Shown here piece by piece: positions 1-3,170 of a DNA stretch of 64,000 bases. Location of the stretch: the NCBI GenBank assembly GCA_044229975.1, contig JBGARZ010000011.1, positions 160,001-224,000 on the forward strand, written 5' to 3'. Position 1 is the stretch's first letter. Each line of letters opens with the position of its first letter. The translations under genes were made by a program, and so were the position numbers. Source of the stretch: Polyangiales bacterium. Lineage in GTDB: Bacteria > Myxococcota_A > Polyangia > Polyangiales > Ga0077539. The notes below the pieces were generated by a model that was not told the origin of the DNA, ran no database searches, and saw nothing but the letters and a program-made list of their open reading frames with translations.

Positions 1-215
1 ACGAGCCCGCACGGCAGCGCCCACAGGAAGAACAGCAGCCCCGCCGTCGTGTCGGGGTTGATGCGCGCCCCGGCGACGGTCGCGCGGGGGTGGAGGCTGC
101 GCGCGACCGCCGACTGCGGGGGCGCCTGCTCCCACGGAGCGTCAGGCTCACTACACCCAGCGAGCGCGACGACGACCGCCAGTACCCATCCCCATTGAGC
201 GCGCGCGGCTGCCAT
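1..215 (-). CDS. Lipoprotein, 5' part only (runs off window)
   Basis: ATG at 215 gives MAAARAQWGWVLAVVVALAGCSEPDAPW..., with a signal peptide and LAGC lipobox; the frame stays open to the window edge. Confidence 0.7.
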   Translation of the reverse strand, partial: MAAARAQWGWVLAVVVALAGCSEPDAPWEQAPPQSAVARSLHPRATVAGARINPDTTAGLLFFLWALPCGL

Positions 216-465: not shown

Positions 466-495
466 CGTCACCCCCGCGGGTCGACCGCATCGCGC
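466..495 (+). repeat. Direct repeat, left copy (att-like)
   Basis: Matches 2308-2337 with 1 mismatch. Confidence 0.9.
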
Positions 496-633
496 TCGAC
501 ATGGGGCGCGTGTTCAGTCAGTGAGGACAGAGCTGATCGTCATCGACCGACATGCGTGAGAGGAGACGCCGTCCGCCCGACACCGTTGCTATCGCGCAAT
601 CACCCCAACGCCGCCCCGTGGTAGCTTCGCCGC

Positions 634-1257
634 GTGCGTAGGCGATCGACACCTTCGAGTGCAAGCCCCACATCGACGAAGCAGGTTCAATACGAGCTCG
701 CTCGACTCTTCACGGATCAGGATCCTGACCTCGTGACCGACTGCATCGCTCCCCTGCTCGCATGGTTGCCGCAGGGCGGAGCGACGCCGCTCGTCGTTGC
801 GGTCGAGCACCGTACGGTCAACCGCTCTGAAGACGTCACCCTCACCACGAGCTGGAGCCTGCCGACGCTCCAAGGTCTCATCCCTGGCCTCTCCGACCAC
901 ACGCGACGTCTTCGGAAGGCGACCTCTCCGCAGCGCGAGCACGTGACAGAGCTCGCGTCCTACGCGCTGGCGTTCGTTGCCATCTCCGCGCTCATGCCGG
1001 GACGTCGTGTGGTGCGCTTTCACAAGGGATACGCGCCCGACCTGCTCTTTGACATCACCCCAACCGCGTTGAAGGGCGTCGAGGTCGCGGGCCGCACCTC
1101 CGGCGGTCGGGCGGCGTTGCGCGCCGTTCGCGATGGCTCAAAGAGCCAACCGGGCAAGGCCCCTCAGCTTCGCGCGGAGCCGACCATCGTCGAGGCACAT
1201 CTGTCCCTCTGGTGTGCGACGCCTTGCGTTGGTCTCTGGGAGCAGGTGAAGCCATGA
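634..1257 (+). CDS. Hypothetical protein, putative PD-(D/E)XK restriction-endonuclease-like fold
   Basis: 207 aa ORF; helix TELASYALA followed by GYAPDLLF...GVEVAG (E...PD...E pattern); stop overlaps the next ATG (ATGA). Confidence 0.6.
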   Translation: MRRRSTPSSASPTSTKQVQYELARLFTDQDPDLVTDCIAPLLAWLPQGGATPLVVAVEHRTVNRSEDVTLTTSWSLPTLQGLIPGLSDHTRRLRKATSPQREHVTELASYALAFVAISALMPGRRVVRFHKGYAPDLLFDITPTALKGVEVAGRTSGGRAALRAVRDGSKSQPGKAPQLRAEPTIVEAHLSLWCATPCVGLWEQVKP

Positions 1258-2270
1258 GTTCGACGACGGACCTGTACACACACCTCCTCGCCGGCGCCGG
1301 AAAGCTCGAGCTGCGTGCGACGGCGAAGCTGGCCGAGGGGTCGTCCGAGTCCATCTTTGAGGCGTGTGTGCTGCTCCACGAGGCGGCCCGCATCGAGCGC
1401 CGTGCGCTTCGTGCGTTGCCCGCCCCTCCCCCGGCCATCGTTCGGCTCGCCGCCGCGGTAGAGGAGTGCTTCTGCCTCGTGGAAGGGCTCGACCCGACCG
1501 GCGCCGCGAGCGCGTGGGAGGGCGTGGTTCGCGAGCGCGCCCTGGTCCCGCACGACACGACGCTGCTGACGCGTGTCGAACCGCGATACCAAAGAGCGAT
1601 TCAGGACTTCCAAGCGCTCCTGTCGCAGTGCAAGACGCTCATGGCCCACCTACAAGTCGGCCATGGGGTACCGCCCACGTCATCGGCGCGCGCGGCGGAA
1701 CTGCGAGATGTTCGCAGGGTATTGAGAAGGTTTCCCGGCGCCGCGATGTTCTGGTGGAGGGCGTATCGGCTCCAGGAGGCGGAGGAGTCTTTCGCGGACG
1801 CGTGGCTTTCGCTGTCCAAAGCGCGACGACTGGCGCCCGACAACCCGACCTATGTCGCGTTGAGCCTCGTGCTGGCGGTCAAGGCGTTGCCTCCGCGCGA
1901 GGCCGACGCGCAGCTCCAACAAGCGCATGCGACGCTCGACGACCTCGGTCCGGAAGCGTGCCTCATGTACGCACACGCGGAGCTGGAGCGTGCGGAGAAG
2001 ACGGGCGAGCGCGAGCGTTGGCTGCGCGCACGAGATGCCATCGAGCAAGGACTGGCAGCGTCCCCGGCGGGCAACCTCTACCAGAACCTCAAGGCCACTC
2101 GGCTCATCATTGAGTGCCTGCTTGATGGCCGCGCGCCATCGATCGACATCCTCTACCGAGTTGGCCTCGGCGAGGAGGTGGCCGCAGCGCCCCAGGGCGG
2201 CAACGTCATCGATCTCGTCGCTCGGCGCTCGAAGCAGCAGATCTCGGCGAGCCCGTTGGCCGCCGCGTAG
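1254..2270 (+). CDS. All-helical TPR-like partner protein
   Basis: ATG at 1254 overlaps the upstream TGA; Ala/Leu/Arg-rich helical segments such as AWLSLSKARRLAPDNP. Confidence 0.7.
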   Translation: MSSTTDLYTHLLAGAGKLELRATAKLAEGSSESIFEACVLLHEAARIERRALRALPAPPPAIVRLAAAVEECFCLVEGLDPTGAASAWEGVVRERALVPHDTTLLTRVEPRYQRAIQDFQALLSQCKTLMAHLQVGHGVPPTSSARAAELRDVRRVLRRFPGAAMFWWRAYRLQEAEESFADAWLSLSKARRLAPDNPTYVALSLVLAVKALPPREADAQLQQAHATLDDLGPEACLMYAHAELERAEKTGERERWLRARDAIEQGLAASPAGNLYQNLKATRLIIECLLDGRAPSIDILYRVGLGEEVAAAPQGGNVIDLVARRSKQQISASPLAAA

Positions 2271-2307
2271 CACTCCGACGAGCTTATTTGCCAGTCACCA
2301 CTCGCCG

Positions 2308-2337
2308 CGTCACCCCCGCGGGTCGACCGCGTCGCGC
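2308..2337 (+). repeat. Direct repeat, right copy (oppC 3' end)
   Basis: Matches 466-495. Confidence 0.9.
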
Positions 2338-3170
2338 AGCGCTTCACCCAGCAGGTTGAAGCCCACCACCGTCATCAAGATCGCCAGCCCCGGCACCAGC
2401 GTGAGCCGCGGCACCACGCGCGTCAGCGACTCCGACTGCTGGAGCATCGACCCCCACGACGCCGCGGGCGGCACCACCCCGACGCCCAGGTACGACAGCG
2501 CGCTCTCCGCGACGATCATCCCCGCCACCTGCGTCGTCGCGATGACGATCACCAGCGGAACCACGTTGGGCAGCAGGTGCTTCGTGATCACGCGGGCATG
2601 CGAGGCGCCGAGCGCGCGCGCGGCCATCACGTAGTCGAGCTCCTTGAGCTGGAGCGCCTTGCCCCGAATCTGCCGCGCCATGGAGGGCCACGAGAGAGCG
2701 CCGAGCACCACGAAGATCACCCAGAGGTCGGGCTTGTCGATGATCTTGTTGAGCGTCATCACCACGAGCAGAAATGGAAACGACAACAGCGCGTCGACGA
2801 GGCGCATGAGGATGGTGTCGGTCCATCCGCCGAAGTAGCCCGCGAGGAGGCCGACGAGGGTGCCCACCAGCACGACGAGGGCCGTCGCGGCGAAGGCCAC
2901 GGTGAGCGACACGCGCGCCCCGTAGAGCAGGCGAGAGAGCTCACAGCGACCGACGACGTCGGCCCCGAGCGGAAACTCCCACGTCGGCCCGATGGGGACG
3001 CCCTGCGTGGTGAGCGTTCGGCTCTTGAAGGGGAGGTTGGGGTCGTGCGGCGCGAGCAGCGGGGCGAACACCGCGGCCGCCAGCGCGAAGAACACCAGCA
3101 TCAGCCCGAAGCGGGCCCCGCGGTTGCGACGGAAGCGGGCGACCGCGCGCGGATCGAAGAGTGCTGCCAT
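2310..3170 (-). CDS. oppC: Oligopeptide/dipeptide ABC transporter permease (OppC/DppC)
   Basis: [26 protein letters not shown]-loop [35 protein letters not shown]. Confidence 0.92.

Follow-up and report, generated by a model that had tools for sequence, protein, structure and literature searches.

We note the presence of a compact two-gene islet, 1.8 kb of foreign-looking DNA, behind the 3' end of the transporter gene oppC in a 64,000-nt stretch of the genome of a Polyangiales bacterium (contig JBGARZ010000011.1, positions 160,001 to 224,000 of the forward strand), and this whole stretch is referred to here as the window (coordinates in Table 1). The two genes overlap in the letters ATGA, and their G+C content at third codon positions (GC3) is 0.75 for gene 1 (0.79 when counted from an ATG at 733) and 0.81 for gene 2, as compared to 0.93 in oppC and, on average, 0.92 over 305 called genes, a reference drawn by a gene caller biased to typical genes. 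The islet is bracketed by a direct repeat whose copies, identical at 29 of 30 positions and 1,842 nt apart, hold the final 28 coding nucleotides of oppC, stop codon included, plus 2 nt; the sole mismatch is synonymous. Elsewhere in the 10.0-Mb genome no copy occurs at up to 4 mismatches, the best other site having 5. oppC itself carries the Pfam domains BPD_transp_1 and OppC_N, and orthologues of 86-91% identity are present in seven of eight same-genus genomes. The original prediction for this DNA, made from its letters alone, had described a 30-bp repeat with the oppC end and stop around ~1.8 kb, and within it two ATGA-coupled genes with more A/T-ending codons than their neighbours; both descriptions are borne out, the repeat being genome-unique. 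The right junction is spanned by a 334-nt contig of run X1 with 1 difference, a run whose independence from the source is uncertain, and the absence from four runs of a contig spanning the whole islet is uninformative at their low depth.

A self-contained, leaderless transcript of the pair is plausible, since an extended -10-like box (TG-n-TAnnnT) lies 6 nt upstream of the gene-1 GTG. Such a spacing of 6-7 nt between box and start was found at 12 of 46 intact homologous loci and at 191 of the 6,084 genes of the genome, a comparison that is not like for like, since a single locus could contribute several candidate starts. A sigma-70 two-hexamer scan, which did not report this box, and a terminator scan returned no match.

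The AlphaFold2 (AF2) model of gene 1 (predicted local distance difference test, pLDDT, 95.9) moderately supports the PD-(D/E)XK nuclease-like fold that had been proposed for it, for the VIA structure search puts a DNA exonuclease first, and of the 50 structural matches listed about 35 are, judging by their titles, presumably PD-(D/E)XK-fold proteins. Another 9 of the 50 are tRNA splicing endonucleases, whose alignments, at up to 129 residues, are the longest; the list also contains a CdiA toxin domain. Seven residues are invariant in all 45 intact gene-1 homologues (E102, P135, D136, D140, E150, K175 and E187), among them the motif I-III acids of the superfamily (E102, P135-D136 and E150). The acidic part of the predicted E...PD...EVAG pattern thus stands, with the refinement that motif III reads E-V-A-G-R and lacks the canonical lysine two residues after its acid (A in 43, G in 1 and S in 1 of the 45); K175 (45/45) and R154 (44/45) sit elsewhere. 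Gene 1 as modelled appears to share with LHK-Exo, Hjc and HamA the core of helices and mixed sheet with E...PD...E, and differs from them in having E-x-A-G-R instead of E-x-K and an additional N-terminal alpha/beta part of ~95 residues.

The gene-2 model is all-helical (pLDDT 93.9), and its proposed likeness to tetratricopeptide repeat (TPR) proteins agrees with several weak signals: a best Foldseek E value of 1.3e-3 at a TM score of about 0.3, a Pfam match at E 0.2, weak TPR/HAT matches in a sequence search of the PDB, and an Atlas comparison of 0.94 with low recognition. Modelling of the two proteins together predicts that they bind, with a score of 0.90 in three of three runs and 0.00 for the best of three controls; this score mark is reached by 116 of 157 solved pairs and 2 of 215 mismatched pairs. 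At least 99% of the contacts were common to the runs, and the partner pLDDT was at least 89. The predicted interface takes in gene-1 residues 99-110 and 127-134, beside PD135-136, and the N-terminal ~110 aa of gene 2 form the predicted gene-1-binding part.

The pair is conserved as a pair, as had been anticipated. Among 97 loci examined, 80 were left after removal of 17 near-duplicates, and both genes are intact in 46 of these; gene 1 is broken or absent beside an intact gene 2 in nine, both are broken in eight, and 16 are not fully covered. The remaining locus (L060) was flagged as the reverse case, with gene 2 lost, and was rejected as such: its gene 2 matches to profile position 335 and the contig end cuts only the stop codon. 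The identities of the two proteins across loci correlate (Spearman 0.83, 45 pairs). With gene 1 taking up ~38% of the pair length, a hand calculation puts the chance of the 9 : 0 split near 2e-4, a figure that leaves out assembly errors and relatedness; the loci were mostly found via gene 1, so that the bias should favour an intact gene 1. Loss in this one direction, gene 1 first, would be expected if the free gene-1 product were toxic. At one locus (L121), a gene-1 remnant and an intact gene 2 lie by repressor-like genes in what appears by eye to be a prophage-like stretch.

Homologous pairs occur in company that is suggestive of defence. For instance, one lies within DISARM (L001), one beside IetAS (L011) and one near DrmD (L016), while two lie within BREX, between pglX and pglY or pglZ (L004, L012), and a third BREX locus (L188) has gene 2 alone. 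Among the 43 locus clusters whose flanks reach at least 5 kb, 16 have defence-type genes no more than 5 kb from the pair, as compared to 1.1% of the bases of this genome, the 16 queries having been drawn from these loci and this genome; six of the 16 clusters represent one methyltransferase-linked clade, and the oppC islet itself is negative. In that clade of seven loci (L013, L014, L015, L073, L079, L081 and L144; support 99/97) gene 2 is ~480 aa long, keeps its N-terminal ~190 aa and ends in a DUF7226-like domain (a weak, sub-cutoff match in six of the six scanned), and a convergent N6/N4 methyltransferase stands directly behind it in 7/7; the short form of gene 2, oppC islet included, has no linked methyltransferase. 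A binding part that stays constant while the remainder varies suggests that the C-terminal part might be a swappable sensor.

More distant gene-1 relatives were reached through an intermediate profile on Anabaena and Hymenobacter plasmids (WP_015217606/607 and WP_133271089/090; 39 and 22 bits), where each is ATGA-coupled, as in the islet, to a downstream gene whose N-terminus looks helical. These plasmid relatives and one in another family of the phylum (together L195, L196:2330-3252 and L197:2279-3714) each overlap their downstream gene by 4 nt. Homology between the short partners of these relatives and gene 2 was undetected (hhalign probability 0.3%, under the shuffled scores). Of 46 candidate gene-1 relatives in viral contigs none was confirmed, and there were none in the phages or plasmids searched directly. 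PADLOC-DB 2.0.0 held no family for either protein at E<=1, none for 10 homologues, and no match for three long partners at E<=1e-15; Pfam (only the gene-2 match above), NCBIfam, PHROGs and the PDB by sequence gave no useful match for either, and an open-access literature search found no description of the gene pair. The pairing, the predicted complex, the loss pattern and the defence neighbourhoods support the proposed character of a toxin-antitoxin (TA) or anti-phage pair.

How the pair came to lie behind oppC is best considered with its other loci and with similar structures in the same genome (G000, in which the window lies on contig C2). The pair is repeat-flanked (score at least 20) in nine of 35 clusters, the oppC islet included, and at one of eight later loci; the 35 exclude 23 short-flank loci, of which L082 is also repeat-flanked. 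Controls gave 5 of 1,237 gene pairs in this genome, 1 of 31 low-GC3 pairs (a small sample) and 2 of 45 displaced windows (one locus counted twice). Repeat-flanked loci are dispersed across the gene-1 tree, and the ~10 targets are unrelated, with repeats of 20-678 bp: tmRNA (24 bp), tRNA-Gly (49), gene tails (20, ~84, 134 and 678), a gene head (~350 bp), an intergenic site (23) and one imperfect repeat (L120). At L014 and L079, of the long clade, nuclease, partner and methyltransferase together lie inside 678-bp and ~84-bp repeats. We also observed that an acyl-CoA carboxyltransferase gene repeatedly adjoins the pair with its 3' end (L005, L050, L017); in this genome the same gene end bears a repeat-flanked HEPN islet (G000:C10:63459/67508; L162).

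A downstream copy of the gene's own tail was found for 17 of the 6,084 genes of this genome, and ten, oppC included, are left after removal of five apparent tandem paralogues, one mirror view and one marginal 20-mer; mirror controls gave 5, 8 and 3 matches, many of them long and paralogue-like. All ten repeats (30-241 bp) end between -10 and +5 nt from the stop codon (log10 P -7.6 against random placement), and two have copies ending in different in-frame stops. Over 13 repeats, the ten tail duplications and three pair loci, the copies show 21 synonymous and 22 non-synonymous differences, as compared to 0.27 expected (p 0.0016, ignoring transition bias). The cargo of the nine other islets includes Septu-like PtuAB, DUF4258 with an MqsA-type antitoxin, a Schlafen-ATPase, XisI and PIN. 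None of the ten has a match to a tyrosine (PF00589) or serine (PF00239) recombinase within 100 kb; the genome has 12 and 3 such matches respectively, and contig C2 none of either. One of the nine lies at the tail of a second oppC paralogue. One ComEC match is present in the genome. Inspection of the repeats by eye showed neither a fixed att core nor an Xer-like boundary motif, and a tandem att array was discarded, the adjoining 49-kb tract holding no further tail copies.

At the oppC locus of seven same-genus genomes only a single oppC-tail copy is present, but in none of them is oppC joined to the gene that follows the distal repeat here (window positions 215-1), as the predicted empty site would have it. 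No integrase was among the genes called near oppC in these genomes. In four relatives (G002, G003, G004 and G008) oppC is faced, at 4, 1, 137 and 1,573 nt, by a lipoprotein-like gene from which it is separated in this genome by a 49.3-kb accessory tract that runs out of the window on its left (G000:C2:112964-162309; L111-L113). As the relatives lack the whole tract, the exact empty site was not found, and the islet is thus an oppC-proximal addition to a large variable tract.

Table 1. Features of the oppC islet (window positions) and the other tail-duplication islets of the same genome (contig positions)
Feature	Position	Strand	Basis or remark
433-aa gene after distal repeat, 5' part	1..215	-	first gene of ~49-kb accessory tract reaching past the window
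Distal (orphan) oppC-tail copy	466..495	-	likely displaced resident gene end; genome-unique
Extended -10-like box	619..627	+	sequence; possible leaderless promoter
Gene 1, 207 aa, predicted PD-(D/E)XK-fold nuclease, likely toxin/effector	634..1257	+	AF2, VIA search, conserved residues
Gene 2, 338 aa, all-helical TPR-like, likely antitoxin/sensor	1254..2270	+	AF2, complex model
Proximal repeat copy	2308..2337	-	makes present oppC 3' end and stop
oppC, target gene	2310..3170	-	intact, 286 aa, Pfam
Tail-duplication islet, integrase-free	G000 C2:72344/75737		
Tail-duplication islet, integrase-free	G000 C4:135610/137040		
Tail-duplication islet, integrase-free	G000 C11:517308/518496		
Tail-duplication islet, integrase-free	G000 C23:13818/14556		
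Tail-duplication islet, integrase-free	G000 C23:275367/277802		
Tail-duplication islet, integrase-free	G000 C39:148378/150538		
Tail-duplication islet, integrase-free	G000 C34:139253		6.8 kb
Tail-duplication islet, integrase-free	G000 C34:348770/350382		
Tail-duplication islet, integrase-free	G000 C34:388663/392027		

We favor, with fair confidence, the view that the pair is a type II TA-like and likely anti-phage module that arrived by recombination anchored on oppC homology; taken singly, a TA or defence function is likely, and so is the homology-anchored route. The helical partner would bind beside the active site of the nuclease and hold it off until triggered, and infection might release the nuclease through the partner's swappable C-terminal module. 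As for arrival, donor DNA from a relative carrying an oppC end with the cargo behind it might recombine within oppC, either through a single crossover of a trimmed and re-circularised piece or via an illegitimate second joint, whereupon the donor tail would complete oppC and the resident tail would be shifted 1.8 kb downstream. The two repeat copies are best read, from sequence comparison, as two alleles, donor and resident, because of the stop-codon endings, the differing in-frame stops, the synonymous excess and the varied cargo with no recombinase nearby.

With regard to function, gene 1 might alternatively be no DNase but an RNase (e.g., a tRNase) or a fold with altered catalysis, which would be a sub-variant of the TA-like module and which we hold to be rather improbable: the missing canonical lysine, the long alignments to tRNA splicing endonucleases and the listed CdiA toxin domain speak for it, while the top match is a DNA exonuclease, most of the listed matches presumably have the PD-(D/E)XK fold, the acidic triad is invariant, and the equally invariant K175 might provide the lysine from another element. 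A more distinct scenario is that the two proteins make up a restriction-type heterodimer with nuclease activity, gene 2 being an activating or specificity subunit and not an inhibitor. The clade with the ~480-aa gene 2, its weak DUF7226 match and its constant convergent methyltransferase would suit such an enzyme, and the predicted complex is as compatible with activation as with inhibition. However, an enzyme in need of both subunits could lose either of them first, whereas the observed losses divide nine to zero, and the short form, including that of the oppC islet, has no linked methyltransferase, so that we regard the heterodimer as unlikely.

With regard to the route, the original prediction took oppC for the att site of site-specific integration, and a related possibility is that the islet is a worn-down, formerly integrase-bearing element with the oppC tail as att, of which the addictive pair between attL and attR has outlasted the rest. 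The repeat does restore the gene, homologous pairs sit at tmRNA and tRNA-Gly 3' ends and also close to integrases or a recombinase (L116, L118, L117), and the recombinases encoded elsewhere in the genome could act in trans. The att-site claim is nevertheless not supported, in view of the pair's unrelated targets with repeats of such varied length and of ten tail duplications with different cargo and no nearby recombinase; the worn-down element is further opposed by the lack, by eye, of a common boundary motif at ten different protein-gene targets, by the pair's other loci, where repeats reach 678 bp and one duplicates a gene head, and by the single-copy, integrase-free oppC loci of the relatives. 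Moreover, loss of the att core is among the hallmarks of provirus decay given in PMC13626063, yet both copies are kept here, and we consider such a remnant to have only a small chance of being correct. It is conceivable too that the gene-1 nuclease mobilises the islet itself, making staggered cuts from which the target duplication arises, given the enrichment of repeat-flanking around the pair (9/35 against 5/1,237) and the suggestion by Furuta et al. (PMC2853133) that double-strand breaks made by restriction-modification (RM) systems have a part in such insertions. The same structure, however, holds unrelated cargo in this genome, the repeats stop at stop codons and resemble two alleles rather than a fresh copy, and the low-GC3 control is small (1/31), which together make self-mobilisation highly improbable.

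Homology-anchored insertion of this kind is already known, and it is the gene family, probably a TA-like defence with an atypical active site, that is new. Insertion with long target duplication was defined for RM genes by Furuta, Abe and Kobayashi 2010 (PMC2853133), and their class resembles the islet in having defence-type genes that lie, unaccompanied by a mobility gene, between direct repeats of considerable and variable length, but it calls for both R and M genes as well as a repeat above 30 bp, whereas the oppC islet has no methyltransferase and a 30-bp repeat that ends at a stop codon. PMC3240628 describes experiments in which trimmed, re-circularised DNA integrates by a single crossover and so gives gene-end duplications; in E. 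coli, PCR on 60 clones yielded the product diagnostic of lacZ-end duplication in 56, and the 14 sequenced had duplications of 109-950 bp. Homology-facilitated C-terminal displacement was proposed for type VI secretion system (T6SS) and Rhs loci in PMC5361080. Both systems share with the islet the one-sided homology that puts foreign DNA behind a gene end; homology-facilitated illegitimate recombination proper, though, usually gives deletions, and the insertions described here target ordinary genes, housekeeping or accessory, with repeats as short as 20-30 bp.

On the functional side the islet is a coupled two-gene operon conserved as a pair, and it is like type II TA systems, as generally understood, in its coupling, its predicted binding and a putative toxin that is lost before its partner; it differs in having the putative toxin gene first and a 338-aa TPR-like partner, and in the short form of gene 2 no DNA-binding domain or family match was detected. 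Auxiliary or backup PD-(D/E)XK effectors inside BREX loci are described in PMC12839542, where a REase-fold gene lies amid core BREX genes as at the pair's BREX loci; the main text of that paper gives no match for "TPR" or "myxo", its supplementary neighbourhood tables may list members, and the pair also occurs alone. DefensePredictor (PMC13092281), in the sections available, reports PD-(D/E)XK domains as common in new defence systems and protection from 1 of 24 low-score units picked by homology, six with a PD-(D/E)XK domain; TPR is named there in figure legends only.

The islet offers a compact, testable TA or defence candidate that current libraries miss, one whose key residues are named, whose interface is predicted and whose apparent sensor swap exists in nature. 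Since one genome holds ten such grafts, several with TA or defence cargo, a repeat that restores a gene 3' end is no proof of an att site in this lineage. We further speculate, as a doubtful extension, that the pair belongs to a modular "caged nuclease" immune family reaching Cyanobacteria and Bacteroidota, with an N-terminal helical lock, a lysine-less REase-fold nuclease and a swappable sensor (TPR-like here, DUF7226-like and paired with its own methyltransferase in a sister clade), and that integrase-free "gene-tail grafting" might be a main means of delivering TA and defence islets in Myxococcota.

Some minor observations concern the surroundings. The 49.3-kb tract carries two Septu-like PtuAB pairs and, by eye, PIN-type TA-like genes. 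A 6.4-kb contig of run X3 (record 18) is 97% identical to the 3' part of oppC and diverges exactly after the stop codon. oppA- and oppB-like genes, which directly follow oppC in other genera, lie ~147 kb off (G000:C2:309223-311828), so that the operon is split in this genus. Finally, CRISPR-like arrays with a ~29-nt repeat and ~61-nt spacing form two blocks ~4 kb apart at G000:C11:433800-440900.
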